NCBI GenBank assembly: GCA_013202845.1
Contig: JABMPT010000005.1
Coordinates: forward strand, 71,308 to 135,307
Length of the DNA: 64,000 nt
Reading direction: 5' to 3'
From: Candidatus Woesearchaeota archaeon
Lineage (GTDB): Archaea; Nanobdellota; Nanobdellia; Woesearchaeales; GCA-2686295
The notes under the pieces were generated by a model. That model made no database searches, was not told where the DNA came from, and worked only from the letters and a program-made list of their open reading frames with translations. Both the position numbers and the translations under genes were made by a program. Below, one piece after another: positions 2,031 to 29,897 of the stretch. Position 1 is the first letter of the stretch, and every line of letters starts with the position of its first letter.

Positions 2031-2080
2031 TTACTAGTGTTACTAGTATGATATTTATATATTTTTCCATTATGGAAGAA

Positions 2081-2803: not shown

Positions 2804-2827
2804 TCATCAACACCCCTTACCAAAGAA

Positions 2828-7238: not shown

Positions 7239-7272
7239 ATAACCCCCTTTGTGCTAAAAGTTATGATGAATT

Positions 7273-7282
7273 GTTTATATAA
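7273..7282. promoter_or_regulatory. Palindromic archaeal TATA box (TTTATATAA) in the divergent aglB / methyltransferase intergenic region.
   Basis: tttatataa lies about 38 nt upstream of the aglB ATG, with an AAAGGGGG SD 5-9 nt before the ATG. A second tttaaataaa box sits at 7311-7320, before the plus-strand gene. Confidence 0.45.
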
Positions 7283-7342
7283 TTTTTGATTAAAAAAACA
7301 AACAACAAGATTTAAATAAAAACAAAAAGTCATTAAAAAAAT

Positions 7343-7891: not shown

Positions 7892-7899
7892 ACAAAAAT

Positions 7900-13374: not shown

Positions 13375-13418
13375 TTCTTCACAAAATTTTATAAATAAAA
13401 CTAGCTTCAGCAGAAAAA

Positions 13419-14552
13419 ATGAGAATATGCATGATAATTGAGGCCTGGAGGCCCATATGGGGTGGTGGACAAGCACATGTCTGGGAACTGGCAAACAAGT
13501 TGGTTCAGAAAAATAATTGTGAAGTAGATATTTTTGTAATGGATATAAAAGGCACTGATGAAAGTAAGTCACAAGCATATGAGAAAGACAAACTCAGAGT
13601 TTTTCGCCTCGGGCATAATCTGGAATTCAAATTCTTCGATAGAATCAGATGGTGTTCAAAACTTGTAAAAATAGTGAAAAGAGAACATAGAAAAAATAAA
13701 TATGATTTAATACACACGCATGCTAATCTTCCAGGAATCCCTGGAAAAATCTTAAGCAATAAGTTAAGAATACCAATTGTATATACAGTGCATGGATGCG
13801 GACTTGAGGCAATAAAGGATATGTACAAGAATTTTATTGCAAGCAACCTATTATATTTATTCGAGAACTTTCTGCAGACAAAGATAAAATATGACTTCCA
13901 GATAACAGTTGATAAAAGCTTCCTGAAATACAAAAACATAAACAAGAAGAAAACGATTATTCCTAACGGAGTAAATATTGAAAAATTTGACGAAGTAAAA
14001 TCCATTCAGAGTGAGACATTCAAAATAATTTTTGTCGGTAGACTACATCCTCAAAAAGGTTTATCATACTTACTAAAGGCTCTTCATATGATTAAAAATG
14101 AACTTAGAGATACAGAAGTCCATCTGATAGGCGGAGGGCCTGAAGAGAAAGAATTAAAAGAATTAACAAAAAAATTAGGACTTGAAAATCTAGTCAAATT
14201 CAGAGGAAAGATATACAAGAAAGAACTGTTTAAGGAATATAAATCTTCAGATCTATTTGTTCTTCCATCACTTTACGAAGGACAGCCCTTAACATTATTA
14301 GAAGCATGGGCTGCAAAATTACCAGTCATAGTTACAAATGTTGGTGGAAATGAAGACTTTGTGGTTAATGAGAAAAACGGTTATATCATACCATCAAAAA
14401 ATATAGATGTACTTGCAAAAACAATTCTCAAAGCAAAGAATAATAAAGATCTCAAAGTTCTAGGTTTGAAAGGTTACAAACTTGTAAAAGAAAAGTATAG
14501 TTGGAGTTCTGTCGCTGAAAAAACTTATAGAGTGTATGAACAAATCTTATAG
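13419..14552 (+). CDS. GT4 (GT-B) glycosyltransferase.
   Basis: YEGQPLTLLEAWAAKLPVIVTNVGG motif. Confidence 0.8.
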   Translation: MRICMIIEAWRPIWGGGQAHVWELANKLVQKNNCEVDIFVMDIKGTDESKSQAYEKDKLRVFRLGHNLEFKFFDRIRWCSKLVKIVKREHRKNKYDLIHTHANLPGIPGKILSNKLRIPIVYTVHGCGLEAIKDMYKNFIASNLLYLFENFLQTKIKYDFQITVDKSFLKYKNINKKKTIIPNGVNIEKFDEVKSIQSETFKIIFVGRLHPQKGLSYLLKALHMIKNELRDTEVHLIGGGPEEKELKELTKKLGLENLVKFRGKIYKKELFKEYKSSDLFVLPSLYEGQPLTLLEAWAAKLPVIVTNVGGNEDFVVNEKNGYIIPSKNIDVLAKTILKAKNNKDLKVLGLKGYKLVKEKYSWSSVAEKTYRVYEQIL

Positions 14553-14554
14553 AA

Positions 14555-15553
14555 TTATTTTCCAACCCAACTTGGAGGCATGTTCTTTGTTACTTCAATG
14601 TTCTTGAATTGCCTGCTTTTTTTACTACCTATCTTTTTCGCCCAGTCAGCCATTCTTTTAACCCCTTCTTCTAAAGAGGTTTTTGTTTTATATCCTAAAA
14701 TCCTGCTGACCTTTGTGTGCTTAGAATGCGCGTGCATGACTTCATTCCTTGCAGCTAAATGCACTATCTTTTGATTTGAACCCATTACCTTAATGACGAT
14801 TTTTGCCAAATCGTTGACTGATCGCGGTTTATCTTCACCAATATTAAACATTTGATTGTATGCCTTCTTTACTCTTATTGATTTAGCGATTATCGGAGAA
14901 ATGTCTCCTATGTATGAAAAGCCTCTAGTCTGTTTTCCATCTCCAAATATAGTCAATGGTTTGTTCTGCATTATCTGATTCAAGAAGATTCCTGCAACAT
15001 TTCTGTACTTATCTCCAAGATTCTGTCTTTCACCGTAAACATTGTGAGGTCTGAATATTATGTAATCCAAGCCAAACATCTCATGAGCAGCTCTCAAATC
15101 AAGCTCAACAGCATACTTTGAAATTCCGTAAGGGTCCTCGGGATTTGGCACTGTCTCCTCCTTCATAGGAAGCTGGTTGGTTCCATAAACTGCGATAGAA
15201 GATGTAAACACAAAGCATTTTACATCATGTTTCACAGACTCATTAATTAGGTTTATACTCCCTAAAAGATTGTTTCTGTAGTTGAATATTCTTATGAAAT
15301 GAGATAAACCTTCGGCTGCATAAGCTGCCAAATGAAACACATATTTGAATTTATGCTTCTTGAATAAGTTTCTAATCATCTTGAAATTTAGAACGCTTCC
15401 TTTCACAAAAGCTGCTTTTTTAGGAACATTCTCTGTGAAGCCACCGCTTAAATCATCAAGAACAACCACTTTATAGCCTAATTTTATAAGTTCATCCACT
15501 ATATGAGAACCCATGAATCCTGCACCACCTGTAACTAGAACCTTCTCTTTCAT
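14555..15553 (-). CDS. NAD-dependent nucleotide-sugar epimerase/dehydratase (extended SDR; UDP-hexose or HexNAc 4-epimerase-like).
   Basis: VLVTGGAGFMGSH Rossmann motif and a YxxxK motif (YGISKYAVE). Confidence 0.8.
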   Translation of the reverse strand: MKEKVLVTGGAGFMGSHIVDELIKLGYKVVVLDDLSGGFTENVPKKAAFVKGSVLNFKMIRNLFKKHKFKYVFHLAAYAAEGLSHFIRIFNYRNNLLGSINLINESVKHDVKCFVFTSSIAVYGTNQLPMKEETVPNPEDPYGISKYAVELDLRAAHEMFGLDYIIFRPHNVYGERQNLGDKYRNVAGIFLNQIMQNKPLTIFGDGKQTRGFSYIGDISPIIAKSIRVKKAYNQMFNIGEDKPRSVNDLAKIVIKVMGSNQKIVHLAARNEVMHAHSKHTKVSRILGYKTKTSLEEGVKRMADWAKKIGSKKSRQFKNIEVTKNMPPSWVGK

Positions 15554-15595: not shown

Positions 15596-16633
15596 TTATT
15601 CAATTATTTTATAGTTATATAGAAGTTTTCTAATTTCACCCTTAGTAAGTTGACGAAGATTAGCAGAATCATATTCCTCATAGCTTCTTTTTGATTTATA
15701 TTCAGAAACAAATCCTGGCGTTATAATTGACGATCTAAGAACAAACATGTCTCTTAGTTCTTTAAGATGGTTTGTTTCTTCTTTTGTAATTAAGCATTCA
15801 CTTATTTTCTCCCCTGGTCTGACACCTATCTTCTTGATGTTCATATCTTTAGTTTTAAAACCATGTTTAGGCGCTAATTCTTCTATCATGACTTCTGCCA
15901 AGTCTATAATTCTAAGACTTTTCATTCTTAGAATAAATATTTCTTCTCCTTTCATCAAAGTTGCTGCTTTTAGAACCAAGTTAACTGCTTCAGACATGGA
16001 CATAAAGAATCTCGTCATGTCAGTGGTTGTTATTGTTACTGGCCCTCCTTCACTTATTTGTTTCTTGAAAATAGGTATCACTGAGCCATTTGAGTTTAAG
16101 ACATTACCAAACCTGACTGATGAGAACCTTGTTTTGTAATCACCATAATTCGCTGAGATTGTGAGTTTCTCACTCAGTAATTTTGTAGCACCCATTGTGT
16201 TTATAGGGTTTACTGCCTTATCAGTGCTTATAGAAATAAACTTTTTGACATTCTGTTTTCTGGCAGCATTAATCAGATTTTGTGTTCCAACAATGTTTGT
16301 GCTAACTGCCTCAAATGGATTATATTCACACAATGGAACATGTTTCAAAGCAGCTGCATGAAAAACAATGTCAACGCCTCTCATAGCCATTTCTAATCGT
16401 TCTTTATCCCTAACATCTCCAATTAGATGCCTTGTTAACTTGCTTTTTATGGCTTGGCGCATGTAAAAATGTGCAGATTCATTATTATCGAATATCCTTA
16501 TTCTTTTTGGCTTAAACGCCAAGAGTTGTTTCACTATTTCTTTACCTATTGAACCACAACCTCCTGTTACTAGAATATCCTTTCCTTGAAAGATTCTCTT
16601 AAACTTGTTTTCCGGATTGGTTTTCTTTCTCAT
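15596..16633 (-). CDS. UDP-GlcNAc 4,6-dehydratase (PseB/LegB/CapD-like).
   Basis: ILVTGGCGSIGKEIVKQL, followed by the TDKAVNPINTMGATK catalytic region typical of PseB/FlaA1/CapD. Confidence 0.75.
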   Translation of the reverse strand: MRKKTNPENKFKRIFQGKDILVTGGCGSIGKEIVKQLLAFKPKRIRIFDNNESAHFYMRQAIKSKLTRHLIGDVRDKERLEMAMRGVDIVFHAAALKHVPLCEYNPFEAVSTNIVGTQNLINAARKQNVKKFISISTDKAVNPINTMGATKLLSEKLTISANYGDYKTRFSSVRFGNVLNSNGSVIPIFKKQISEGGPVTITTTDMTRFFMSMSEAVNLVLKAATLMKGEEIFILRMKSLRIIDLAEVMIEELAPKHGFKTKDMNIKKIGVRPGEKISECLITKEETNHLKELRDMFVLRSSIITPGFVSEYKSKRSYEEYDSANLRQLTKGEIRKLLYNYKIIE

Positions 16634-16676: not shown

Positions 16677-17777
16677 TTAATGATAGAAATCCATCATTGA
16701 TTTTTTCACAGTAAGAACTTGCTTCTTGGTCATTTCTGGAAAGAACGGTAGAATAAGTGTTGTTTTACTTAATTTTTCTGCAACGAAAAAGTCTCCTTCC
16801 TTATATCCAAACTCTTTTCTATAGAATGGTTGTAGATGTATGGCTGGGAAGAAGTATGCTTTGCTGTGTATTGCTTTGCTTAGCAGATGAACCGCTAACT
16901 CATCTCTATCTTTTGCAGGAACTTTTATTGGAAAAACAAACCAGGTATGAGTATTGTGGCTATCGGTAACTGGTAATGTAACTTGTGGTATTTCTGCTAG
17001 TTCTTTTAAATAAAGATCTGCAACTCTTCTTCTCTCAGATATCAAATAATTTATTTTTTTTAACTGTGAAATTCCTAGAGCTGCTTGGAGATCTGTAATC
17101 CTATAGTTGTATCCTAAATGTTCGTGGGTCAACCATTGTCTACTACTTCCCCTCCCTTGATTTCTTAGACTTCTACAAGCTTCTGCTACTTGTTTATTGT
17201 TTGTCACAATCATGCCTCCTTCCCCTGTAGTTATCTGCTTATTTGGATAAAAAGCGAAAACAGCTGCGTCACCAAAAGTTCCAACTTTCTTCCCTTTGTA
17301 TTTTGCATTAATTGATTCACAAGCATCTTCTATTACTTTCAACTTATGTTTCTTTGCTATTCTCATAATTTCACCCATATCACAGCTTTGACCAAACACT
17401 TGAACTGGGAGAATAGCTTTTGTTTTTTTTGTTATTTTTTTCTCTATCTTGCTAGTGTCAATATTGAAGGTTTTCTCATCAACATCTACAAATACAGGCT
17501 TTGCTCCTTCAAATAATACACAGTTTGCTGAAGCAACAAAAGAGAAAGGAGAGGTTATTACTTCATCACCTCTTCCTATTCCTAATGCTTTTATACATAA
17601 ATGCAACCCAGAAGTTCCTGAGTTAACAGCAACAGCATGTTTTGTTCCTATAAGCTTTGCAAATAGTTCCTCAAATTCTTCAATCTTTGGACCTAAACTC
17701 AACCTTCCTGACTTCAAGACTTTCTCGACTGCTTTGATATCTTTCCTATCAATATGTGGTTTTGCTAATGGTATCAT
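16677..17777 (-). CDS. DegT/DnrJ/EryC1-family PLP-dependent sugar aminotransferase (PseC/LegC/PglE-like).
   Basis: MIPLAKPHIDRKDIKAVEKVLKSGRLSLGPKIEEFE...NSGTSGLHL. Confidence 0.85.
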   Translation of the reverse strand: MIPLAKPHIDRKDIKAVEKVLKSGRLSLGPKIEEFEELFAKLIGTKHAVAVNSGTSGLHLCIKALGIGRGDEVITSPFSFVASANCVLFEGAKPVFVDVDEKTFNIDTSKIEKKITKKTKAILPVQVFGQSCDMGEIMRIAKKHKLKVIEDACESINAKYKGKKVGTFGDAAVFAFYPNKQITTGEGGMIVTNNKQVAEACRSLRNQGRGSSRQWLTHEHLGYNYRITDLQAALGISQLKKINYLISERRRVADLYLKELAEIPQVTLPVTDSHNTHTWFVFPIKVPAKDRDELAVHLLSKAIHSKAYFFPAIHLQPFYRKEFGYKEGDFFVAEKLSKTTLILPFFPEMTKKQVLTVKKSMMDFYH

Positions 17778-18595
17778 ATACTCACCTTGTACATATTCTC
17801 CACCAACATAGCTACCGTAACAGGTCCAACTCCTCCTGGTACCGGTGTTATGAATGATGCTTTCTGTTTAACAGTTTTAAAATCCAGGTCTCCAAAAATC
17901 TTATTGTTTACTTTTGAAATACCAATATCTATCGCGACAACACCTTCTTTGACATGTTCTCCTTTAACTAAGCCAGGAACTCCTGTGGCAGATATCACAA
18001 TATCTGCATCTCTTGTGAGTAAATATATGTTTTTTGTCTTATTATTGCAAACAAAAACAGTAGCTCCTTTTCTCATCAACATCAAAGCAAGCGGTTTGCC
18101 AACTAAATCACTGTCATTTATTATACAAACATTTTTTCCTTCGACTTGAATATTATTTTCTTCTATTATTCTCATTATTCCTCTCGGCGTGCATGGACCT
18201 GCTTTATTATCATACATTATCTGGCCCAGTGTTACTGGATTCAAAAAATCAACATCTTTTTTAGGAGCTATTTCCTTTAAAACAGCTGTTTTGTTTATGC
18301 CCTCTGGTAAGGGGAGTTGTACTAGTATTCCGTCTACATCATCTGATTCATTTAATTTTCTTATAAGAGAAATCAGCTCTTTCGTAGTTGAGTTTTTGAA
18401 AAAGTATTTCTGTAATGATATTCCTGCTTCATTGCATGCTTTTTCTTTTAACTCAACATATAGATGTGATGGTTCATTATCACCAACAAGAATAACCGCT
18501 AACACAGGTTTTGTCTTCAACTCTGAGATTTTCTTCTTAGTGTTTTCTATTATTTTCCTTGCAAAGCTCTTCCCATCAAAAATTTCACAAGTCAT
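17774..18595 (-). CDS. folD: Bifunctional methylene-THF dehydrogenase / methenyl-THF cyclohydrolase FolD.
   Basis: ILVGDNEPSHLYV...ILVQLPLP...TPRGIMR...PVPGGVGPVTVAML motifs. Confidence 0.8.
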   Translation of the reverse strand: MTCEIFDGKSFARKIIENTKKKISELKTKPVLAVILVGDNEPSHLYVELKEKACNEAGISLQKYFFKNSTTKELISLIRKLNESDDVDGILVQLPLPEGINKTAVLKEIAPKKDVDFLNPVTLGQIMYDNKAGPCTPRGIMRIIEENNIQVEGKNVCIINDSDLVGKPLALMLMRKGATVFVCNNKTKNIYLLTRDADIVISATGVPGLVKGEHVKEGVVAIDIGISKVNNKIFGDLDFKTVKQKASFITPVPGGVGPVTVAMLVENMYKVSI

Positions 18596-19838
18596 TATAT
18601 ATTGGAAAATCCTCGCACAATTGTTTTACTTCTTGCTTCACTTTTAACTTATAATCCTTGCTATCCTTATTTTTCAAAGTTTTCATCATTAATTCAGCCA
18701 GAAGTTTCATTTCCGATTCTTTCATTCCTCTAGTGGTCAAACCAGCAGTGCCTATTCGTATTCCACTTGGATCAAAAGGACTTCTCTTATCATAAGGAAC
18801 CATGTTTTTGTTGACGATTATGCCAACTTCTTCCAATAAGCTTTCTGCTTCCTTTCCAGAAATATTTAGACTTGTTAAATCTGCTAAGATTAAATGATTA
18901 TCAGTTCCTCCTGAAACTAGATTCATTCCTCGATTTGTGAGTTCTTCTGCTAATGTTTTACAGTTTTTCACTATTTGTTTAGCATACTCTTTAAACTCTG
19001 GTTTTAATGCTTCTCCAAAAGCTACTGTCATACCTGCTGTGGTATGGTTGTGAGGTCCTCCTTGCATCCCTGGAAATACTGCTCTATCAATGTCTTTTGC
19101 AAATTTTTCTTTGCAGAGTATCATAGCTCCTCTTGGACCTCTTAAGGTTTTATGAGTTGTTGTAGTGATTATATCTGTGAATGGAAAGGGACTTGGATGA
19201 ACTTTGGCAGCTATTAATCCAGCTATGTGGGACATATCAACCATGCTTATTGCTCCAATTTCTTCAGCTATCTCATGAAATATCTTGAAATCAATCTCTC
19301 TTGGATAAGCGGTTGCTCCTGAAAGAATCAATTTTGGCTTTTCTTTCTTTGCCAGTTTTCTTATCTCATCATAATCAATCAAATGTGTTTTCTTATCAAC
19401 TCCATACTGTATGAATTTGTAAGTCTTCCCTGAGAAATTTATTGGATGACCATGAGTTAGATGACCTCCATGAGCGAGGTTCATTCCAAGAACTTTATCT
19501 CCATGATTTAGAACTGCAAAATATACTTCAAGATTAGCAGGTGAGCCTGAGTATGGTTGAACATTGACATGTTCTGCTCCAAATAGTTCCTTTGCTCTTT
19601 CCTGAGCAAGTATTTCTATCTCATCTACATATTTGTTTCCGCCGTAGTATCGCTTTGCAGGATATCCTTCAGAATATTTATTTGTGAAAACACTACCTGT
19701 CGCTCTTAGAACATTTGTGCTTACAAAGTTCTCTGAAGCAATAAGTCCTAAAGTACTTTGTTGTCTTTTTAGCTCATTAACTAGAATATCTGAGGCTTTC
19801 TTGTCTTTTTCTCTTAGTTTTTTATATTCCCCCTTCAT
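18585..19838 (-). CDS. glyA: Serine hydroxymethyltransferase GlyA.
   Basis: LIASENFVS, the TNKYSEGYP..RYYGG motif and the THKTLRGPRG PLP-lysine region. The start was trimmed to the internal Met (MKGEYKKL); the ORF track extends it to 19937. Confidence 0.85.
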   Translation of the reverse strand: MKGEYKKLREKDKKASDILVNELKRQQSTLGLIASENFVSTNVLRATGSVFTNKYSEGYPAKRYYGGNKYVDEIEILAQERAKELFGAEHVNVQPYSGSPANLEVYFAVLNHGDKVLGMNLAHGGHLTHGHPINFSGKTYKFIQYGVDKKTHLIDYDEIRKLAKKEKPKLILSGATAYPREIDFKIFHEIAEEIGAISMVDMSHIAGLIAAKVHPSPFPFTDIITTTTHKTLRGPRGAMILCKEKFAKDIDRAVFPGMQGGPHNHTTAGMTVAFGEALKPEFKEYAKQIVKNCKTLAEELTNRGMNLVSGGTDNHLILADLTSLNISGKEAESLLEEVGIIVNKNMVPYDKRSPFDPSGIRIGTAGLTTRGMKESEMKLLAELMMKTLKNKDSKDYKLKVKQEVKQLCEDFPIYNDL

Positions 19839-19927
19839 AAGGTGGACTACTAGTACCAGATTTATTAATCTTTCTGAAATCGAAAATTTCAGAAGCCCAT
19901 AAACTTGTTTAAGTATATTTCTGAAAT

Positions 19928-20482
19928 CTATCCACAATTCATAACTCTTTCCTCTGTGATAATTATGTCTACAGGAATATCATGTGTTTGATTCGGTAAT
20001 TCCTTGACAACTTGCTTTTCAAAAGCTAAACCTATCTTCAAAGCATTACTTATTTTTCTCAAGAATTTGTCATAATATCCTTTACCATAACCTAGTCTAT
20101 GGCCTTTTTGGTCAAATACTATGCCAGGAACTATAACAATATCAAGAGGAATTGTTTCTTCTATTGGATTAATAGGTTCTAATATCTCAAATATTCCTTT
20201 TTTTAGTTTAGCAAACCCTAGAAACTTGGTGTATTTTATCTCATCTCCAACTACATAAGGAATAAAAACTTCTTTAGTTTCACTAATTTCTGTTATTAAA
20301 GTATGTGTTTGTACTTCATTATCGATAGAGATATAACAATGAACTTTTCTTGAAGCTGTGAATTCTTCTAAGTCAAAAAGTATTTTTTTTATTTTATTAC
20401 TCTTATTAGCCACAACTTCCTTACTCAGGCTATTTCTTTTTACTAATATTTCTTGTCTAAGAGTTTGCTTAAATTGATTCAT
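19928..20482 (-). CDS. 5-formyltetrahydrofolate cyclo-ligase (MTHFS).
   Basis: C-terminal GYGKGYYDKFL matches the 5-FCL signature; length is 184 aa. Confidence 0.65.
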   Translation of the reverse strand: MNQFKQTLRQEILVKRNSLSKEVVANKSNKIKKILFDLEEFTASRKVHCYISIDNEVQTHTLITEISETKEVFIPYVVGDEIKYTKFLGFAKLKKGIFEILEPINPIEETIPLDIVIVPGIVFDQKGHRLGYGKGYYDKFLRKISNALKIGLAFEKQVVKELPNQTHDIPVDIIITEERVMNCG

Positions 20483-21140
20483 CGTTTTTTAGAAAAACTT
20501 TTTCTCCATTAACTTCTTTATACGGTAAATCTCTGGCTCCAAGAAAATATGTTGCTCTGATTCTTAGTTTCACTTCCTCTTCATTCATTTCATCTGTGAT
20601 TTTGCAAAGTTTTTGAAGTTCTTTTCTAGTATAAGGTTTTCTTTCCCAAGTCTCATTAGACTCTGGTAAACGCTTGTTTTCAATAATACACGCAAATATT
20701 TCATGAAATAGTTTTACAAGGTAATCTATTGTTCTTTCTTTTAATTTGAGAACTGTGTCATCTTCATACATCGGAAATCTAAGTACTTTTACAATTTTTC
20801 CTGAGTCAACTCTTGATATCATATAATGGCAGGTTACACCATATTCTTTATCTTTGTTATATATTGCAAAGTTATAGCATCCTATGCCAGGATATTTTGG
20901 AGGTGCAGGATGAAAGTTAATTGCTAACTTAGTTTTATTCAACAACCATTCAGGCACTATCCAAGGACAAAGAAAAGATATTACATAATCACCAAACCAA
21001 TCTTTTAGCTCTTCTGGAAATTTATCTCCAAATTCTCCTTCAAAAATTTTCAAATCTACTTCTTTTGGAATTCTTTCTTTTACAAACGTTTGTATTTCTT
21101 TACAAGCATCAGATGTTTTTGTCAGTAAAAGAATTTTCAT
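20469..21140 (-). CDS. Formyltransferase-fold enzyme (Formyl_trans_N); predicted N10-formyl-THF-dependent sugar N-formyltransferase.
   Basis: DYVISFLCPWIVPEWLLNKTKLAINFHPAPPKYPGIGCYNFAIYN...SRVDSGKIV aligns to the Fmt/PurN core (Asn-x-His ... Asp catalytic residues, SLLP-like loop). Confidence 0.55.
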   Translation of the reverse strand: MKILLLTKTSDACKEIQTFVKERIPKEVDLKIFEGEFGDKFPEELKDWFGDYVISFLCPWIVPEWLLNKTKLAINFHPAPPKYPGIGCYNFAIYNKDKEYGVTCHYMISRVDSGKIVKVLRFPMYEDDTVLKLKERTIDYLVKLFHEIFACIIENKRLPESNETWERKPYTRKELQKLCKITDEMNEEEVKLRIRATYFLGARDLPYKEVNGEKVFLKNDESI

Positions 21141-21141
21141 T

Positions 21142-22275
21142 TTAGTAGGTTATTTGTTTTTGCAATAATTTCTTGTCTATTTTTATAGATTTCAAAACTT
21201 TGATTATTCTAGGAGCTGTTTTTCCATCACCATAAGGATTCTTACATAATTTTAGTTTTTCTTTGAAACTTAAAGACATTGATTTCTTTATTGCTTTTTC
21301 TATTGAATCTTCGTTGTAACCTACATTTATAACATTAAAAGTTCTGTCTCTTCTGTTTTGTCTTGTTCCAATGTTTACAACAGGCAACTTAAAAGATGCG
21401 GCTTCTATTATTCCGCTACTGGAATTTCCAACAAGAACTTCTATGTTATTCAGTAAACTTAAATATTCATCATGAGGAATATTTTTGAATATCTTAAATT
21501 TAGGATTTTTTGAAAACTCTTTAATCTTATCTATTATTTTTCTTCCTCCTGCATCTGCATTTGGGTACACAATGATTGTTTGATAACCTAGTTCTTCTAC
21601 AGCTTTTAGAGTTTTAGAAACTTGGTTATCAGGATTATCTTCTCCTGTTACTGGATGTTGAATAACCATTAATGTTTTTTCATCGTTTAAACTTAACTTT
21701 TTGAATAATTTTTTTCTTGGAATGGTTTTATTTTTAACAATACAATCCAAGCCGGGAGCCCCAACAACATAAATTCTCCATTTATCCTCACCCATTTTTC
21801 TTATTCTTTCAGCACTATTTTCTGTGCATGGCAAATGAATATGAGACAATTTAGTGATTGAGTGACGTGAGATTTCATCAACAGTAGATGTTACTTCCCC
21901 TCCATGTAAGTGAGCTACTGGAATAGTTAAATAAGCGCCCACTATTGCAGCGCCTAACATTTCAGCTCTATCACCAAGAACTACTATTATGTCTGGTTTT
22001 GATTTCTTCACATAGATTGCTAACTTATTAATGAATTCACTCAAAAAAATAACCATTGAATTTTTATCATCTTTTTTGTAAATAGAATTTATTTTCTTAA
22101 TTTTAAATCCCTCTTGTTCTATGTCTCTATAAGTATTTCCAAAATCCTTCATTAAGTGCATGCCTGTAGCGACTAAATCTAATTTCAGATCTTTGTCTTT
22201 TTTTATTAAAAATAGCACCTCTTTCATTAAACCATAGTCAGCTCTTGTTCCAGAAACACATATTATTTTTCTCAT
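21142..22275 (-). CDS. UDP-sugar 2-epimerase (hydrolysing), NeuC/LegG-like.
   Basis: MRKIICVSGTRADYGLMKEVL...HLHGGE; non-hydrolysing/hydrolysing 2-epimerase family. Confidence 0.8.
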   Translation of the reverse strand: MRKIICVSGTRADYGLMKEVLFLIKKDKDLKLDLVATGMHLMKDFGNTYRDIEQEGFKIKKINSIYKKDDKNSMVIFLSEFINKLAIYVKKSKPDIIVVLGDRAEMLGAAIVGAYLTIPVAHLHGGEVTSTVDEISRHSITKLSHIHLPCTENSAERIRKMGEDKWRIYVVGAPGLDCIVKNKTIPRKKLFKKLSLNDEKTLMVIQHPVTGEDNPDNQVSKTLKAVEELGYQTIIVYPNADAGGRKIIDKIKEFSKNPKFKIFKNIPHDEYLSLLNNIEVLVGNSSSGIIEAASFKLPVVNIGTRQNRRDRTFNVINVGYNEDSIEKAIKKSMSLSFKEKLKLCKNPYGDGKTAPRIIKVLKSIKIDKKLLQKQITY

Positions 22276-24032
22276 TTTAAGTCATTCCAAAGAATTAATT
22301 TATCTTTTGCAATATTTTTTTTTGCGATTTTCCCTAGAACTTTGGAAATATCTTGAGGAGGTATACCTGTGCCAGGCCTCTTGATTATTATCATATCAGA
22401 AGTTATAACCGTCCCTTTTGCAATGTCTTGTTTTGCTACTAGACTTTTCTTTGCAACAACTTCTATTCTCTTCTCTGAATCAGTTGATTTTTTCTCTTCT
22501 GAACCTCTAATTATTTCTACTAAACGTATTTGCTTCACCATTTCTTTTAACTCTTTAGGTTCAAGTGATGCTTTGTGATCTGGCCCTTCCATATTTCTAT
22601 CGAGAGTAAAATGTTTCTCAATAACAACCGCACCCATAGATGCAGCAACTAAAGGAACAACTATTCCTTCTGTATGATCAGAATAACCAACTAAGCATTC
22701 TAATTCTTTTCTCATTGTTTCCATTGCTCTAAGATTTACTTCTTCATAAGGTGTTGGATAATTAGTTGTGCAATGCAATATCACTATATTATTATTTCCT
22801 TGAGATTTCATAGATTCATAAGCTTCTTTCACATCTTCCATAGTTGACATCCCTGTAGCTAGTATTATTGGCTTGTTCTTCTTTGCCATTTTAACAAGAT
22901 AAGGAATATTATTTACTTCTCCTGATCCTGCTTTGAAAGCTACAACTCCCAATTCATCTAAGAAATCAATTGAATCTTCATCAAAAGGAGTTGACAAAAA
23001 TATTAGTCCTTTTTTCTCTGCATATTCTTTCAATATTTGGTGATACTCTTCCTTTAATTCAAGTCTTTTCAACATTTCAAACTGTGTTTCTTGTTTTCCG
23101 ATATTTTTTTTCTGATATTCTGCTTGATCAGCATCTTTTGTCACTAGTTTTTCAGCTTTGAAAGTCTGGAATTTAACAGCATCAACTCCTGCATCTGCAG
23201 CAACATCAATAAGTTTCTTGGCAATTTCTAAATCACCATTGTGATTCACTCCTGCTTCAGCTATCATAAAACAAGGACTGTTATTGTCAATTGTTTTATT
23301 TCCAATCTTAATTTCTGGAAGATCTTCTTTTTCAATTAAAGATTCTGCAATCTTAAAATCAATTTCCTCATCAATATCTAAAGATTCATGAGAAGACATA
23401 ACTAAAGGAGTAACTCTATCTCCCCAAACATAATTCTCTGAGTTCATGATTAGTTCTTTATTAAAAATATATACTGAACCATTTATCAAATAAATAGCAT
23501 TATCTTTTTGGTCTTGTTTTCTTATTTTTGAAAAATCATTTTTTGAAATGAATTTGAGTTCATCTTTTTCTATTCTTAAGAACCAATTCGATGGCATATC
23601 TGCTTTCTTAACAGAAATCATCATATCTGAATTTGATTTCATAAATTTATTTATAGCTTTAGAAAGTAAATTTGAAGATCTTAAAGGAGATGTTGGTTGT
23701 AGCATAATTACAGAATCAAAGTCATAGTTTTCTTCTTCCAAAACAAATACTAGGTGCTTGAGAACATCCAAAGAAGAGGATTTATCTGTTGCTAACTCTT
23801 TTGATCTCATTATTACGTCCGCACCATATCTTCGAGAAATTCCTGCAATCTCTTTAGAATCCGTTGAAACTATAGTTCTACTTATTTCTTTACAACCAAG
23901 AGATTGTTCAATAGAATAAGCAATCAAAGGTTTTCCATTCAAGTATTTAATATTCTTTTTGGGGACTCTCTTACTTCCTCCTCTGGCCGGTATTATTGCT
24001 ATTACTTTTTTCATTAACTCACTTCCATACAC
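22272..24032 (-). CDS. Fusion of an acylneuraminate-type cytidylyltransferase (NeuA/LegF/PseF-like) with a nonulosonic-acid synthase (NeuB/LegI/PseI-like).
   Basis: N-terminal VIAIIPARGGSKRVPKKNIKYLNGKPLI (CMP-NeuAc synthetase motif). Middle PCFMIAEAGVNHNGDLEIAKKLIDVAADAGVDAVKFQTF (NeuB TIM barrel). C-terminal SAF domain. Length is 586 aa. Confidence 0.8.
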   Translation of the reverse strand: MYGSELMKKVIAIIPARGGSKRVPKKNIKYLNGKPLIAYSIEQSLGCKEISRTIVSTDSKEIAGISRRYGADVIMRSKELATDKSSSLDVLKHLVFVLEEENYDFDSVIMLQPTSPLRSSNLLSKAINKFMKSNSDMMISVKKADMPSNWFLRIEKDELKFISKNDFSKIRKQDQKDNAIYLINGSVYIFNKELIMNSENYVWGDRVTPLVMSSHESLDIDEEIDFKIAESLIEKEDLPEIKIGNKTIDNNSPCFMIAEAGVNHNGDLEIAKKLIDVAADAGVDAVKFQTFKAEKLVTKDADQAEYQKKNIGKQETQFEMLKRLELKEEYHQILKEYAEKKGLIFLSTPFDEDSIDFLDELGVVAFKAGSGEVNNIPYLVKMAKKNKPIILATGMSTMEDVKEAYESMKSQGNNNIVILHCTTNYPTPYEEVNLRAMETMRKELECLVGYSDHTEGIVVPLVAASMGAVVIEKHFTLDRNMEGPDHKASLEPKELKEMVKQIRLVEIIRGSEEKKSTDSEKRIEVVAKKSLVAKQDIAKGTVITSDMIIIKRPGTGIPPQDISKVLGKIAKKNIAKDKLILWNDLK

Positions 24033-25275
24033 GATGTCTTAAAACCCATTTATCATTTGCTTTTTTCCACAAATGAGGTGATCTGAATTTATCGGCAACT
24101 TCAAAAAACTCTTTTTCACTCATATCAATATACTCCAAAAACTCTTTGAAGTATCTTTTTGGGAATTCTTCATCAAATTTCTTAACTAAAGCAACAGCTT
24201 CTTCTCTTGTAATCTTTTCATTACGAACTTCTTGAGAAGCATCATAAGTTGCTCTACCAATTCCAAATTTAATTAATGTAGTCCAATAATGGAATGGATC
24301 AGTTTTGTCATCTATGCTGTTGTATTTTGAATATGTACCCTCAGTTCGTTGATCATTCGCCTGAAAATCCACTTTATCAACAGCAAAATAATAAGCTTCT
24401 TGAGGATCCCATTTAATATAATATCCCATATAATGAACCTGAATACCAGCTTTTTCTATCTCATTAGGATCGAGTGGCAAATACGGGACAAGATCAACTC
24501 TTTCAAGTCCATGTTTTTCAATTAAATCACTAACTTTTACTCCGAAAATAAACATATCATTAAAATTTTCACCACAGTGATATTTTTGAGAGCGTAAAGC
24601 AGTTACGGTATCTTGAATAGGATTTCCATACTCGGCTTCATTTTCACCATAAAAAACTAATGGGACACCATATTTCAATGCGAAACATGCACCAATGTTT
24701 TTTTGACCCAATATAAAAGGTTGAAAAGGATGCAATAAATTAGTATAAGCCAATTTTGTTAATAATCTATGTACTTTACCATTTGGTGTAAATAAAATAT
24801 TATCAAATCCGCCTTTATGTACCCAATTAATAAAATAATTCCATCCATAGGGAGTGTACATATGAGGAGCCCAAGTGACAGTAAGAGGATGCATATCGTA
24901 TTTATACTTTAAAATCCAAGAAGCCATAATACTATCTTTTCCGCCACTTCCTGATACAATACAATCATATCTTCCATCTGTTCTTCGGTATTTATCACAT
25001 AGTTTTTTTAATTCTTTTTCACGTTTTTTCCAATCAATATTATGATTTTTTTTATCAGTTACTTTACAGGCATCACAAACTCCATCCTCATCAAAATTTA
25101 TAGTTTCTTTTTTAGTTTTAATATTATGTTTAAACTCAACTGCTGAATTAGGCCTCTGATTTGAAATAACACATCTCTTACAAAATTTAACTTCCCTTGG
25201 CAGACCATAGAGAACTGAAACATTATCAGTTTTTTCTTCTTTATATTCCTTTGGGTCAACATTTGATGTTACCAT
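24019..25275 (-). CDS. N-acetyl sugar amidotransferase (WbuX/AglX/PseA family; PP-loop ATPase).
   Basis: SGGKDS PP-loop, N-terminal Cys-rich region (CKRC...CDAC), length 418 aa. It sits adjacent to a HisH/HisF paralog. Confidence 0.75.
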   Translation of the reverse strand: MVTSNVDPKEYKEEKTDNVSVLYGLPREVKFCKRCVISNQRPNSAVEFKHNIKTKKETINFDEDGVCDACKVTDKKNHNIDWKKREKELKKLCDKYRRTDGRYDCIVSGSGGKDSIMASWILKYKYDMHPLTVTWAPHMYTPYGWNYFINWVHKGGFDNILFTPNGKVHRLLTKLAYTNLLHPFQPFILGQKNIGACFALKYGVPLVFYGENEAEYGNPIQDTVTALRSQKYHCGENFNDMFIFGVKVSDLIEKHGLERVDLVPYLPLDPNEIEKAGIQVHYMGYYIKWDPQEAYYFAVDKVDFQANDQRTEGTYSKYNSIDDKTDPFHYWTTLIKFGIGRATYDASQEVRNEKITREEAVALVKKFDEEFPKRYFKEFLEYIDMSEKEFFEVADKFRSPHLWKKANDKWVLRHRVWK

Positions 25276-26652
25276 TTAGACTACCCCCAAAAATCTCTTC
25301 AAAATTTTTAGTCCTAAATAATCACATTTTTCAGGATGAAACTGGGTTCCATATACATTGCCTCTCTTTACAACAGAACAAAATGATTGGTTGCCATATT
25401 CTGATTCTGCAAGAATATCTTCATTATCTTTAGGAACACACCTAAATGAGTGAACAAAGTACATTAACGAGTTGTTAGACACACCTTCAAGAATAGTGTT
25501 TTGCCATGATTTGTTTTTAGGAATAACTATTTCACTCCAGCCAACATGAGGCAATCTAATCCTTTTACTTATTTTTTCAGGTTCTAATTTCTTTACAACA
25601 CCTGGTATTACTCCCAATCCTTCATGGACCCCAAATTCTTCTCCTTTCTCAAATAATAACTGCATACCTAAACATATCCCTAATAAAGGCTTTCCTGAGT
25701 TTACATAATCCCTTACAGCTTCAATGAGTCTATTCAACCTAAAGTTGTTCATACCTTCACTGAAAGATCCTACTCCAGGAATAATAAGCATCTCAGAATT
25801 ATTTATTTCATCAGGATTTTTAACAAATCTATATTCATAACCGAGACTTTCTATAGCAGATTTTAAACTATACAAGTTTCCAAGACCATAATCAACAATT
25901 GAAACTGTCTTTTTATCATTCTTATTATTCTTAATATCATCTTTTAAATCTTCTCTAATTCTGATATCATTAACTCCTTGTTCAAGTAAATATTTTTTAA
26001 TTTTTTCAATAGTAGTCTCATCATAATGCAGGACTGAAGCAAAACTCACAGCATCACATTTAGTTTCTTCAATGCATTTCTTAATATCTTCTATACTTCC
26101 AGCACCACCAGAAGCAATAATAGGAACATCAACAGAGTCAGTAATCTGTTTTATTAGTTCCAAGTCATATCCTTTTTTTAAACCATCTTTATCAACAGCA
26201 GTTACCAATAACTCTCCAGCTCCAAGCTCAACAAGTTTTTTTGCCCATTCAACTGCATCCAAACCAGTCTTTTCTCGACCACAATCAATATATACCTCCC
26301 ATTTTCCTAGGCCAGATTTCTTTGCTTCAATAGAACCAACAATACATTGAGTTCCAAACATTTGTGAAGCTTCTTTAATAAAATTAGGATTTCTAGTTGC
26401 GGCGGTATTTATTGCTACTTTGTCAGCTCCCGCTCTTAAAACTTGCCTGATATCCTCAAGGTTTCTTATCCCACCTCCAACAGTCATTGGAACAAACATT
26501 CCAAGCGCAACTGTTTCTTCAATTATATGCAAAAGATTATTTCTTTCATATAAACTTGCTACTATATCAATATACAATATTTCATCAGCTCCTTGCTCAA
26601 AATACTTTTTTGCAAGTTCTGCCGGATCACCAACTACTCTTAATCCTTCCAT
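25276..26652 (-). CDS. Fused HisF-like cyclase and HisH-like glutamine amidotransferase (WbuZ-WbuY / AglZ-AglY paralog). It supplies ammonia for acetamidino formation.
   Basis: N-terminal HisF motifs (VVGDPAELAKKY...DEILYIDI...GGGIR...VAINTAA). C-terminal HisH triad region (GICLGMQLL...H.E). Length is 458 aa. Confidence 0.8.
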   Translation of the reverse strand: MEGLRVVGDPAELAKKYFEQGADEILYIDIVASLYERNNLLHIIEETVALGMFVPMTVGGGIRNLEDIRQVLRAGADKVAINTAATRNPNFIKEASQMFGTQCIVGSIEAKKSGLGKWEVYIDCGREKTGLDAVEWAKKLVELGAGELLVTAVDKDGLKKGYDLELIKQITDSVDVPIIASGGAGSIEDIKKCIEETKCDAVSFASVLHYDETTIEKIKKYLLEQGVNDIRIREDLKDDIKNNKNDKKTVSIVDYGLGNLYSLKSAIESLGYEYRFVKNPDEINNSEMLIIPGVGSFSEGMNNFRLNRLIEAVRDYVNSGKPLLGICLGMQLLFEKGEEFGVHEGLGVIPGVVKKLEPEKISKRIRLPHVGWSEIVIPKNKSWQNTILEGVSNNSLMYFVHSFRCVPKDNEDILAESEYGNQSFCSVVKRGNVYGTQFHPEKCDYLGLKILKRFLGVV

Positions 26653-28646: not shown

Positions 28647-28739
28647 TTTTATCTATTTAGTAAATGTTCGTTCTAATTTTTTCCCTCAATTTTATTTATT
28701 AATTCATAAAGATTGTCTTTTGATCTTAAGTTTACTTTT

Positions 28740-29783: not shown

Positions 29784-29897
29784 TTATACCTCAAAGAAAA
29801 TTAATAGTCAATAACTTATAAATGTTTCGAGAAAGAATTGTTTTTATCGACGAGCATTTGTAAAAACTAAGTCTACTTTGAAAATATATAAAATAAA

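Follow-up and report, generated by a model that had tools for sequence, protein, structure and literature searches.

Among the closest described systems is the leg cluster of Halorubrum sp. PV6, in which the predicted formyltransferase HrrPV6_1050 adjoins legG, and the N-glycan of this organism was found by mass spectrometry to end in N-formyl-legionaminic acid (Zaretsky, Roine & Eichler 2018, PMC6137143). As likened by the cluster description, the locus analyzed here shares with it an archaeal legB/legC/legG/legI/legF-type gene set and a formyltransferase beside the NeuC-like legG; in Halorubrum, however, the formyl group is placed on N5, a NeuD-like LbH gene is present, and no folate genes were reported in the cluster, the word 'folate' being absent from the text searched (PMC6137143). 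Another counterpart, PseJ (PDB 6ci2/6ci4), is cited as the formyltransferase filling in the Pse5Ac7Fo pathway (PMC11040635). It is a stand-alone Formyl_trans_N enzyme replacing the N-acetyltransferase step of a nonulosonate pathway, as we propose below for a 223-aa protein, but its similarity to the latter is weak (E = 1.8e-6, ranked below VioF, ArnA, WlaRD and GAR transformylases), and it operates in the pseudaminic PseB/C/G/I pathway, whereas our operon is of the NeuC-like plus NeuB_NnaB type. We know of no folate genes linked to PseJ.

VioF, WbtJ, WbkC and Rv3404c, the best structural matches (TM 0.74-0.80), use N10-formyl-THF, act on NDP-4-amino-4,6-dideoxy sugars and resemble the 223-aa protein in the Asn-His-Asp triad, the two subdomains and the length of about 220-250 residues; they differ from it in sequence (18-26% identity), belong to other NCBIfam families, under whose cutoffs the protein falls, and serve O-antigen hexoses, not nonulosonates. 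In the ArnA/ArnD system (lipid A Ara4N), a folate-dependent formyltransferase likewise acts on a UDP-4-amino sugar supplied by a DegT-family aminotransferase, but formylation there is transient, the pathway depends on a deformylase, and ArnA carries its formyltransferase in fusion with a decarboxylase. Ordinary archaeal folate/purine neighborhoods (e.g., L170-L172) encode FolD, SHMT and MTHFS with 52-54, 59 and 37-44% identity to ours, respectively, and their folate genes sometimes adjoin a Formyl_trans_N gene; the partners, however, are a PurN-like formyltransferase (so classed by Formyl_trans_N alone), PurH, FolC, PurP and PurS, and sugar genes are absent. Both N-formyl nonulosonates and the formyltransferases that make them have been described before, and it is the embedded cofactor module described below that appears to be new.

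The window (the whole stretch of 64,000 nucleotides analyzed) comes from a tiny DPANN archaeon of the symbiotic type, and NCBI lists the identical protein under 'Candidatus Woesearchaeota archaeon'; haloarchaea such as Halorubrum are metabolically complete. Between a DegT-type sugar aminotransferase and a NeuC-like epimerase, at positions 17774-21140, lie four co-directional, mostly overlapping minus-strand genes for a Formyl_trans_N protein, MTHFS, SHMT and FolD (Table 1), exactly as the preliminary description had placed them; its family assignments for these genes and their two flanks were borne out by Pfam and NCBIfam profile scores, and both motifs that it quoted, INFHPAPPKYPG and GYGKGYYDKFL, were found in the translations. 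The junctions of the module and its flanking genes are packed in an operon-like manner (NeuC/formyltransferase, +1 nt; formyltransferase/MTHFS, -14; MTHFS/SHMT, +89; SHMT/FolD, -11; FolD/aminotransferase, -4), so that the MTHFS gene shares 14 nt with the formyltransferase gene, and the FolD gene shares 11 nt with that of SHMT and 4 nt with that of the aminotransferase. This packing, the gene identities and the intactness of the catalytic motifs are established. MTHFS exceeded the TIGR02727 cutoff of 84.9 bits with 168, and SHMT the NF000586 cutoff of 335 with 612. The mechanical SHMT ORF (18585-19937) comprises 450 aa from a TTG codon, while two independent gene callers begin the gene at Met34 (position 19838), for a protein of 417 aa; the translation carries the PLP-lysine motif TTTTHKTLRGPRG. 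Residues Y46, K50, Q93 and D116 of FolD are invariant among its close homologues. Each of the four module genes occurs only once in the window.

Table 1. Genes of the operon in the window, and gene orders of related clusters with embedded folate genes (FT, formyltransferase; AT, aminotransferase).
Feature	Positions	Strand	Profile matches or gene order
GalE-like SDR epimerase/dehydratase, 3' end of gene array	14555..15553	-	Pfam Epimerase 3e-51
NDP-HexNAc 4,6-dehydratase, PseB/PglF-like	15596..16633	-	Pfam Polysacc_synt_2 2e-109; PseB 323 bits vs cutoff 408
PLP-dependent sugar 4-aminotransferase, DegT family, PseC/LegC-like	16677..17777	-	Pfam DegT_DnrJ_EryC1 3.6e-131
FolD, bifunctional methylene-THF dehydrogenase / methenyl-THF cyclohydrolase, 273 aa	17774..18595	-	both Pfam domains, 2e-56, 3e-35
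Serine hydroxymethyltransferase (SHMT, GlyA), 417 aa	18585..19838	-	Pfam SHMT 3e-164
5-Formyltetrahydrofolate cyclo-ligase (MTHFS), 184 aa	19928..20482	-	Pfam 5-FTHF_cyc-lig 6.5e-43
Sugar N-formyltransferase, 223 aa	20469..21140	-	Pfam Formyl_trans_N 4.7e-14; catalytic Asn75, His77, Asp112
Hydrolysing NDP-HexNAc 2-epimerase, NeuC/LegG-like	21142..22275	-	TIGR03568 NeuC_NnaA 439 bits vs cutoff 236
Fusion of N-terminal CMP-nonulosonate cytidylyltransferase and C-terminal NeuB-type synthase	22272..24032	-	Pfam CTP_transf_3, NeuB, SAF
WbuX-type N-acetyl sugar amidotransferase	24019..25275	-	TIGR03573 WbuX 360 bits vs cutoff 203
HisF-HisH fusion, WbuY/WbuZ-like glutamine amidotransferase/cyclase, WbuX partner	25276..26652	-	Pfam His_biosynth 8e-64, GATase 8e-24
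Cluster L004			NeuC-LbH-FT-MTHFS-FolD-AT
Cluster L007			FolD, SHMT, MTHFS divergent from FT-LbH/AT
Cluster L084			SHMT-FolD next to a different FT + AglB
Cluster L085			NeuC-FT(Fmt-like)-MTHFS-SHMT-FolD-LbH-AT
Cluster L086			MTHFS-FolD next to NeuB/DegT cluster
Cluster L173			NeuB::NeuC-FT-SHMT-FolD-AT
Cluster L174			NeuC-FT-MTHFS-FolD-LbH-AT
Cluster L175			FolD heads NeuB...PIG-L-FT cluster

The 223-aa protein is a sugar N-formyltransferase, neither PurN nor Fmt, and belongs to a widespread, uncharacterised family represented in 581 or more species genomes. Its Asn/His/Asp triad is invariant across 34 homologues (alignment A1), and in an alignment with VioF the N-x-H and Asp positions of the two proteins coincide. 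The AlphaFold2 model (pLDDT 95.2, pTM 0.90) had VioF (4yfy) as its best Foldseek match (E 1e-15, TM 0.79), with 6v2t, Rv3404c, WbtJ and WbkC also at the top (TM about 0.75-0.80), and the best 18 matches in PDB were all sugar N-formyltransferases for 4-amino-4,6-dideoxy sugars; the fold is thus closest to sugar 4-N-formyltransferases, in agreement with the initial proposal. Sequence matches in PDB were likewise led by VioF (1e-9) and included ArnA, WlaRD and PseJ. In NCBIfam, the protein scored under the cutoffs of the PurN (47 bits vs 150), Fmt (31 vs 201), ArnA and VioF-type models. The usual neighbors of its homologues are sugar aminotransferases, dehydratases and NeuB/NeuC: over the best 80 homologue loci the 4-aminotransferase was the commonest neighbor, a DegT aminotransferase lay within 10 kb in 51 and within 4 kb in 39, and NeuC together with NeuB was present in 23. 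Both the sugar-formyltransferase fold and the sugar context are therefore established.

The operon is of the legionaminic-acid-like, not pseudaminic, type, because the NeuC-like epimerase and the synthase domain of the fusion exceed their cutoffs (the latter with 481 bits vs 400 for TIGR03569 NeuB_NnaB, and with 317, under the cutoff of 340, for PseI) and PseG and PseH are absent. The aminotransferase matched PseC with 364 bits and LegC with 294, each under its equivalog cutoff. The GalE-like gene keeps the same position in L004 (81% identity), and the HisF-HisH and WbuX genes adjoin the formyltransferase also in L005, L008, L010 and L174; WbuX-type amidotransferases are linked to acetamidino-group formation. 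The absence of an acetyltransferase, remarked on in the preliminary description, held: a scan of every non-nested window ORF of 120 aa or more, and of one of 110 aa, revealed neither a Hexapep or GNAT acetyltransferase nor a PIG-L, polysaccharide deacetylase, LbH or deformylase candidate. The 4-amine would consequently be the sole free amine, and since the cluster is without an acetyltransferase, its likely product, judging by the gene families, is a 7-N-formyl nonulosonate. The earlier comparison with Pse5Ac7Fo therefore stands as an analogy, but, with legionaminic-acid-type genes and no PseG or PseH, not as the expected product.

Folate genes are embedded in at least eight further nonulosonate/glycan clusters (Table 1), and it is established that FolD is repeatedly linked to clusters of this kind, whether or not MTHFS or SHMT is also present. 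Over nine clusters, the window included, FolD was found in 9/9, MTHFS in 6/9 and SHMT in 5/9; the GlyA-FolD-MTHFS trio initially put forward is present in the window, but the constant member across clusters is FolD. Folate genes occurred at five of the seven loci with a formyltransferase that shares 52% identity or more with that of the window and at none of 76 more distant loci (Fisher p = 7e-7, relatedness ignored), while no formyltransferase, NeuB or NeuC was found near generic FolD at 49 control loci; the cofactor-loop idea was strengthened accordingly. The same formyltransferase occurs without linked folate genes in two Woesearchaeota and many bacteria; in the Woesearchaeota loci L005 and L010 the aminotransferase directly follows it, so the window arrangement reads as an inserted cassette. 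The gene orders of the nine clusters differ, and the embedded FolDs, 43-68% identical to that of the window, are divergent and form no single clade in an NJ tree (without support values and with long branches), which suggests that FolD was recruited repeatedly into such clusters. A small LbH acyltransferase accompanies the formyltransferase in L004, L007, L085 and L174, so that the notion of formyl replacing acetyl applies to the window and not to the whole family; in L085 it accompanies a different, Fmt-like formyltransferase. In L006, L081 and L175 the formyltransferase lies immediately downstream of a PIG-L deacetylase.

Taken together, the explanation that we consider rather probable is a legionaminic-acid-type operon, in which an N-formyltransferase takes the usual 4-N-acetyltransferase step and a three-gene formyl-donor cassette is inserted between the genes of this enzyme and the aminotransferase. 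The 4,6-dehydratase would convert NDP-GlcNAc to a 4-keto-6-deoxy sugar, and the aminotransferase would yield NDP-4-amino-4,6-dideoxy-HexNAc, the amine to be formylated; the 223-aa enzyme would then transfer the formyl group of N10-formyl-THF to the 4-amine with release of THF. The NeuC-like enzyme would remove the nucleotide and 2-epimerise the sugar, the NeuB domain would condense it with PEP to a 5-acetamido-7-formamido nonulosonate, the hexose N4 presumably becoming N7, and the fused cytidylyltransferase domain would form the CMP sugar; WbuX with HisF/H might convert the 5-acetamido to an acetamidino group. For reloading, SHMT would form 5,10-methylene-THF from THF and serine, and FolD would oxidise it to methenyl-THF and hydrolyse the latter to N10-formyl-THF. 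MTHFS would return to methenyl-THF the 5-formyl-THF that SHMT releases as a dead-end by-product, a stable folate form that might also be scavenged.

An unlikely but still appreciable alternative is that SHMT, FolD and MTHFS are single-copy general C1 enzymes (for dTMP, purines and Ser/Gly) that belong to the glycan island by location only, any benefit to the formyltransferase being incidental. By sequence they look ordinary and fully functional, FolD homologues of similar closeness (52-54% identity) occur in purine/folate contexts, no other copy lies within the window, and small DPANN genomes seldom keep paralogues; a heavy cofactor dependence of DPANN has also been noted (PMC8407392). Against it speak the linkage at eight other loci in differing orders, strands and gene subsets, also with non-orthologous formyltransferases (L084, L085), the overlap of folate-gene start/stop codons with those of the sugar genes, the direct adjacency of formyltransferase and aminotransferase in L005 and L010, and the empty FolD control. 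Moreover, it does not exclude cofactor supply, as sole-copy genes could be under glycan-operon control. That the four genes are a purine/translation folate cluster inserted in a sugar locus, with a PurN/Fmt homologue as the formyltransferase, is scarcely credible. PurN was the top NCBIfam model (1.6e-12), some metagenome annotators label family members 'methionyl-tRNA formyltransferase', and L170 and L171 provide genuine housekeeping pairs of FolD and a formyltransferase; nevertheless, the PurN and Fmt scores are far under the cutoffs, the Formyl_trans_C tRNA-binding domain is absent from the protein (Pfam), in tblastn (E <= 1e-4) the formyltransferase of L170 did not match the window and that of L171 matched no other locus, and fold and gene context are those of sugar enzymes. 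To our knowledge, initiator Met-tRNA is not formylated in archaea. A PurN/Fmt identity was thus tested and found unsupported.

Two other alternatives concern the fate of the formyl group. It is quite improbable that the 223-aa protein formylates another nitrogen (the 2-amine freed by de-N-acetylation, so that a 5-N-formyl nonulosonate would result) or a free or CMP-linked nonulosonate, although PIG-L immediately precedes family members at three loci, L004, L007 and L174 pair the family formyltransferase with an LbH acyltransferase that could take the 4-amine, and the one archaeal case verified by structure is that of 5-N-formyl-legionaminic acid (PMC6137143). The best structural matches use 4-amino-4,6-dideoxy sugars, the 4-aminotransferase is the commonest neighbor, and with no PIG-L, deacetylase or LbH among the scanned window ORFs there would be no free 2-amine; were this alternative true, the folate loop would be unchanged and the product alone would differ. 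Transient formylation of the ArnA/ArnD type, which would pull an unfavourable transamination and be removed later to leave the mature glycan unformylated, is very improbable: ArnD belongs to the polysaccharide-deacetylase family, genes of which occur near the clusters L086 and L173, and the ArnA formyltransferase domain turned up in both the sequence and the structure comparisons, but no deacetylase or deformylase candidate was seen among the scanned window ORFs, and the existence of stable N-formyl nonulosonates is well established (PMC6137143; PMC11040635).

As relatives of the formyltransferase adjoin an LbH acyltransferase or follow PIG-L, the family may act on another amine in some pathways, e.g., on a de-acetylated 2-amine, which would yield a 5-N-formyl sugar as in Halorubrum. 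For the window operon, the preferred product would be a sialic-acid-like surface sugar formylated at the former 4-amine. With the same pairing found again in eight or more related clusters, the folate module looks like a built-in cofactor supply, not a coincidence; its enzymes would work mainly for the sugar pathway, yet glyA, folD and the MTHFS gene of the window may be the only copies in the genome and may have a further role in making dTMP or purines.

The four minus-strand ORFs in which the preliminary description recognized a formyltransferase-fold enzyme and a folate one-carbon module are present between the NeuC-like epimerase and the sugar aminotransferase genes, and their family identities were established by Pfam and NCBIfam matches: a Formyl_trans_N protein of 223 aa (FT), 5-formyl-THF cyclo-ligase (MTHFS), serine hydroxymethyltransferase (SHMT, GlyA) and FolD. 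Both peptide motifs quoted in that description occur in the translations, and the SHMT translation carries the PLP-lysine motif T-T-T-T-H-K. The 450-aa SHMT ORF begins with TTG, while a start at Met34 (position 19838; two independent gene callers, identical metagenomic contigs) gives a protein of 417 aa. In FolD, Y46, K50, Q93 and D116, which occupy the Tyr-x-x-x-Lys, Gln and Asp positions, are invariant in the homologue alignment; the protein falls below the cutoff of every lineage-specific NCBIfam PRK equivalog for FolD, which points to a divergent lineage and not to another family. The block and its sugar neighbours are packed like a single operon, the junctions being +1 nt (NeuC/FT), -14 (FT/MTHFS), +89 (MTHFS/SHMT), -11 (SHMT/FolD) and -4 (FolD/aminotransferase). 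No second copy of the four genes was found within the window.

Features of the window and of related glycan loci (positions in the window or in the locus named; FT, formyltransferase; LbH, Hexapep acyltransferase)
Locus	Feature	Position	Strand	Remark
Window	PEP mutase gene set	193-1485, 1482-2030, 2081-2803	-	At window start
Window	AglB/STT3 oligosaccharyltransferase, 953 aa	4377-7238	-
Window	NodU/CmcH-type carbamoyltransferase	9846-11573	-
Window	536-aa protein	30985-32595	-	First in array; weak, partial Epimerase_2 (UDP-GlcNAc 2-epimerase-like, GT-B) match
Window	Methyltransferase; radical-SAM/SPASM enzyme; two GFO/IDH/MocA oxidoreductases	26738-30890	-	Second to fifth in array
Window	HisF-HisH fusion, then WbuX amidotransferase		-	Next after oxidoreductases
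Window	Cytidylyltransferase::NeuB fusion, then NeuC		-	Next after WbuX, directly before four-gene block
Window	FT, 223 aa	20469-21140	-	Pfam Formyl_trans_N 4.7e-14
Window	MTHFS, 184 aa	19928-20482	-	TIGR02727 168.2 bits (cutoff 84.9), full-length coverage
Window	SHMT (GlyA), 450-aa ORF	18585-19937	-	NF000586 612 bits (cutoff 335)
Window	FolD, 273 aa	17774-18595	-	PF00763 121 bits, PF02882 190 bits; both THF_DHG_CYH domains
Window	DegT aminotransferase, Polysacc_synt_2 4,6-dehydratase, GalE-like SDR		-	After four-gene block
Window	Divergent B12-binding radical-SAM enzyme	32709-34259	+	Beside array
Window	5S rRNA gene, stand-alone	41851-41966	+	Rfam 73 bits
Window	470-aa ORF	53675-55087	-
Window	492-aa ORF	55075-56553	-
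Window	295-aa ORF	59526-60413	+
L004	NeuC-LbH-FT-MTHFS-FolD-aminotransferase; no SHMT			From best 80 FT loci
L004	Very small LbH, about 130 aa	9585-9983
L004	PIG-L and second formyltransferase	7042-8450		Between NeuB and NeuC
L007	FolD, SHMT, MTHFS divergent from FT			From best 80 FT loci
L007	Very small LbH, about 130 aa	11076-11600
L084	SHMT-FolD adjoining different 245-aa formyltransferase and AglB			From closest FolD homologues
L085	NeuB-PIG-L-FT-NeuC-FT(Fmt-like)-MTHFS-SHMT-FolD-LbH-aminotransferase			From closest FolD homologues
L085	Very small LbH, about 130 aa	7740-8141
L085	PIG-L and second formyltransferase	1650-3058		Between NeuB and NeuC
L086/L087	MTHFS-FolD beside NeuB/DegT cluster			From closest FolD homologues
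L086	526-aa gene similar to 536-aa array head	12246-13826		Adjoins MTHFS-FolD pair
L173	NeuB::NeuC-FT-SHMT-FolD-aminotransferase			Contig of close metagenomic FT homologue
L174	HisFH-WbuX-NeuB-NeuC-FT-MTHFS-FolD-LbH-aminotransferase			Contig of close metagenomic FT homologue
L174	Very small LbH, about 130 aa	10112-10540
L175	FolD heading NeuB...PIG-L-FT cluster			Contig of close metagenomic FT homologue

The block belongs to an unbroken minus-strand array running from about 32595 down to 14555. The protein at its head is a candidate CMP-nonulosonate transferase, and the radical-SAM gene of the array is kept in L004, an archaeal locus with folate genes (56% identity). The oxidoreductases, radical-SAM enzymes and methyltransferase suggest further tailoring of the sugar, e.g., epimerisation or C- or O-methylation. 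The remaining window is a surface-glycan island with an archaeal oligosaccharyltransferase, many glycosyltransferases, a flippase, UDP-glucose dehydrogenase and a carbamoyltransferase, and it also holds archaeal housekeeping genes (Trm14, tRNA-intron endonuclease, Hjc, FEN-1 and the lone 5S rRNA, which is flanked by the genes of UDP-glucose dehydrogenase and of an RsmB/NOL1-type methyltransferase, 16S and 23S rRNA genes being absent nearby). Since AglB/STT3 and the carbamoyltransferase lie in the same island, the arrangement suggests that the nonulosonate ends on an N-linked glycan, which may also be O-carbamoylated. A cytidylyltransferase-PEP mutase fusion (TIGR02320, 394 bits, above cutoff) neighbours another cytidylyltransferase-like gene as well as a LicD-family transferase, suggesting a phosphonate, e.g., 2-aminoethylphosphonate, on the glycan of this DPANN archaeon. 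Three ORFs of 470, 492 and 295 aa matched no Pfam family significantly (E <= 0.001 or better), and the former two, which come after a cellulose-synthase-like GT2 gene, also matched no NCBIfam model at E <= 1e-5.

The 223-aa protein, deposited at NCBI in identical form as a hypothetical protein of "Candidatus Woesearchaeota archaeon", scored 53 bits against PF00551 (Formyl_trans_N, N10-formyl-THF-binding; cutoff 26.1). An alignment of 34 homologues from archaea and many bacterial phyla shows no variation at Asn75, His77 and Asp112, which correspond to N-x-H and Asp in VioF; in the Formyl_trans_N superfamily these residues form the catalytic triad. In a sequence search of the PDB, VioF was the best match (1e-9), followed by ArnA, WlaRD and PseJ. 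The AlphaFold2 model built on the 34-homologue alignment (pLDDT 95.2, pTM 0.90) includes a small C-terminal subdomain and is nearest to sugar enzymes, not to PurN or Fmt: in a Foldseek search of the PDB, the 18 top-ranking structures were without exception sugar 4-N-formyltransferases (TM 0.74-0.80, about 240 columns), including VioF, Shewanella and Pseudomonas congelans enzymes, Rv3404c, WbtJ and WbkC, whose substrates are 4-amino-4,6-dideoxy sugars. The likeness to sugar formyltransferases anticipated in the preliminary description was thus borne out, with VioF-type enzymes at the top of the list, and the protein is predicted to be a sugar N-formyltransferase of the VioF/WbtJ/WbkC kind.

The preliminary description had itself named a missing triad, or orthology to PurN or Fmt, as grounds for abandoning this assignment; the triad is present, and both models score far below their cutoffs. 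The resemblance to PurN is confined to residues 70-155 (TIGR00639; score 47.3 bits, cutoff 150.1), and that to Fmt amounts to 31.4 bits against 201.5 (TIGR00460), the tRNA-binding Formyl_trans_C domain (PF02911) being lacking; fold and gene context are contrary to both. A PseJ-type enzyme does not fit either: PseJ is matched only at E = 1.8e-6 and ranks under VioF and ArnA, and the operon is of the NeuC_NnaA/NeuB_NnaB type. The same evidence led us to drop a pseudaminic-acid type of pathway in favour of a legionaminic one: the NeuC protein matches the hydrolysing NDP-HexNAc 2-epimerases NeuC/LegG (TIGR03568 NeuC_NnaA, 439 bits, cutoff 236), the NeuB protein, to which a CTP_transf_3 domain is fused, matches TIGR03569 NeuB_NnaB (481 bits, cutoff 400), the PseI model stays below its cutoff, and neither PseG nor PseH was found in the operon with NCBIfam models. 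By these sequence matches the operon is of the legionaminic-acid kind, in which the sugar loses its nucleotide as it is 2-epimerised and then condenses with PEP, so that Pse5Ac7Fo, offered earlier for comparison, serves as an analogy and is not the expected product. The 4,6-dehydratase and the aminotransferase are clear members of Polysacc_synt_2 and DegT, and fall below the cutoffs of the PseB, LegB, PseC and LegC equivalogs.

Homologues of FT were found in at least 581 genomes in a scan with one genome per species. Among the best 80 loci from these, a DegT aminotransferase lies within 10 kb of FT in 51 and within 4 kb in 39, NeuC and NeuB are both nearby in 23, and WbuX or HisF/H in 13; in the window, too, genes for an NDP-sugar 4,6-dehydratase and for a DegT aminotransferase accompany FT. 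This is a large, uncharacterised family, structurally nearest to VioF-type 4-N-formyltransferases.

Neither a Hexapep (LbH, LegH/PglD-type) or GNAT acetyltransferase nor a PIG-L or polysaccharide-deacetylase gene was detected among the window ORFs scanned, and the 4-amine introduced by the aminotransferase would therefore be the sole free amine, FT occupying the 4-N-acetyltransferase step of the pathway. The sugar 4-amine would become N7 of the nonulosonate. The earlier idea that formyl replaces acetyl accordingly stands for the window and does not extend to the family, since LbH or PIG-L proteins accompany FT elsewhere: a small LbH acyltransferase does so in L004, L007, L085, L174 and about 25 Bacteroidota loci, and a PIG-L de-N-acetylase directly precedes FT in L006, L081 and L175. 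Outside the window, FT may formylate a de-acetylated 2-amine to yield a 5-N-formyl sugar, as in Halorubrum. The LbH of about 130 aa recurs beside the FT family across phyla (Bacteroidota, e.g., L055, L061) and has no copy in the window. L004 and L085 also possess an extra PIG-L and a second formyltransferase (about 250 aa, partial Formyl_trans_C), a pair absent from the window; it could swap the 2-N-acetyl for a formyl group, and these clusters may yield doubly formylated or 5-N-formyl nonulosonates.

Folate genes occur within 10 kb of FT in two of the 80 best genome loci, both archaeal. Contigs of close metagenomic FT homologues and loci of the closest FolD homologues bring the glycan loci with folate genes to nine, the window included; FolD is present in all nine, MTHFS in six and SHMT in five, and the taxon-labelled members are DPANN or unclassified archaea, the closest related locus belonging to a Nanobdellati (DPANN) MAG. 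Together with the source name of the identical 223-aa protein, these relatives mark the host as a DPANN archaeon (Woesearchaeota), in preference to the thaumarchaeal host that the lone 5S rRNA and the PEP mutase might suggest. L085 repeats the gene order of the window with a non-orthologous formyltransferase in the FT slot. Folate genes accompany FT in 5/7 loci whose FT shares at least 52% identity with the window protein, versus 0/76 more distant loci (Fisher's exact p = 7e-7, uncorrected for shared ancestry). As a control, generic FolDs were collected by a metagenome scan with the closest-FolD alignment, using the back-translated motifs GILVQLPLP and VPGGVGPMT, universal to FolD. Among the matches listed, these were at most 49% identical and added no new glycan-embedded examples; formyltransferase, SHMT, NeuB and NeuC were near none of the 49 loci of at least 6 kb, and MTHFS was near two. 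Altogether, the comparisons support a real association of folate genes with FT. In two Woesearchaeota FT loci devoid of folate genes (L005, L010) the aminotransferase follows FT directly, so that in the window three genes seem to have been inserted between the two as a cassette.

It might be supposed that all the nearest FolD relatives are embedded in glycan loci. The embedded FolDs are 43-68% identical to the window protein; three homologues with 52-54% identity, about as close as several embedded ones, reside in ordinary folate/purine neighbourhoods (L170-L172) with PurH, FolC, PurP, PurS and a PurN-like formyltransferase (assigned by Formyl_trans_N only, not scored against PurN), which rules this out, the FolD lineage being not exclusively glycan-associated. 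The embedded FolDs do not form one clade, suggesting that FolD was recruited more than once; this suggestion is tentative, as the neighbour-joining tree carries no support values.

From these genes we infer the following route, including its substrates, regiochemistry and final product. The dehydratase and aminotransferase would form an NDP-4-amino-4,6-dideoxy-HexNAc, which the 223-aa enzyme would formylate with N10-formyl-THF as the donor; the product would then pass through NeuC, NeuB and the cytidylyltransferase domain to give a CMP-activated 7-formamido nonulosonate. WbuX and HisF/H are a gene set tied to acetamidino sugars; they may amidinate the 5-acetamido group, and their presence in the array makes a 5-acetamidino-7-formamido product conceivable. 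In the proposed cofactor loop, with the folate enzymes presumably serving this pathway, SHMT would reload the released THF from serine, FolD would oxidise and hydrolyse the SHMT product to N10-formyl-THF, and MTHFS would recycle 5-formyl-THF, a side product and inhibitor of SHMT. As a secondary reading, MTHFS and the cyclohydrolase activity of FolD may feed scavenged 5-formyl-THF straight into the donor pool, since FolD is the constant member of the cassettes and MTHFS-FolD pairs occur without SHMT (L004, L086, L174).

Nonulosonic acids with N-formyl groups have been described before, as have formyltransferases that take the place of the acetyltransferase (PseJ; Halorubrum 5-N-formyl-legionaminic acid). 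Reported cases include the S-layer of Halorubrum sp. PV6 and the VP4 protein of HRPV-1, and the formyltransferases of such pathways include PseJ and the predicted HrrPV6_1050, which adjoins legG (PMC6137143; PMC11040635). Unlike these, the window FT appears to fall in a distinct, widespread, uncharacterised family nearest to the VioF type, and the genes for regenerating the formyl donor are built into the sugar operon. Searches of open-access full text turned up no paper that connects MTHFS, FolD or GlyA with clusters for nonulosonates or sugar formyltransferases, which speaks only weakly for novelty. What appears to be new is the 223-aa FT family, usually located beside sugar aminotransferase or NeuB/NeuC genes, and the presence, in sugar operons of at least nine loci, of a cassette for cofactor supply that always has FolD and sometimes MTHFS or SHMT as well. 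The finding introduces no new principle; its use lies in rereading DPANN folate calls and in chemoenzymatic synthesis, as the genes make up a self-contained set for enzymatic synthesis of formamido-nonulosonates with N10-formyl-THF regenerated in situ from serine.

Folate C1 metabolism occurs in only some Woesearchaeota subgroups, where it was treated as central C1 metabolism (Liu et al., 2018, PMC5994134), and most DPANN members depend on external cofactors according to a comparative study (PMC8407392); together these make a patchy, purpose-specific retention of folate genes plausible. Tentatively, and with considerable doubt, we suggest that genome-reduced DPANN archaea repeatedly recruited a FolD-centred folate mini-cycle into nonulosonate operons and that some lineages keep it mainly or only for surface-sugar formylation. 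Were this so, DPANN "folate C1 metabolism" calls would in part denote glycan-decoration machinery running on scavenged folate, with MTHFS and the FolD cyclohydrolase allowing direct use of scavenged 5-formyl-THF. Dedication of the cassette to the pathway would require rereading of DPANN folate genes against the central C1 view of Liu et al. (2018) and would suggest that folate is scavenged from hosts and that formylated surface sugars are important for these symbionts, the sugar mattering enough for host contact to warrant a cofactor supply of its own.
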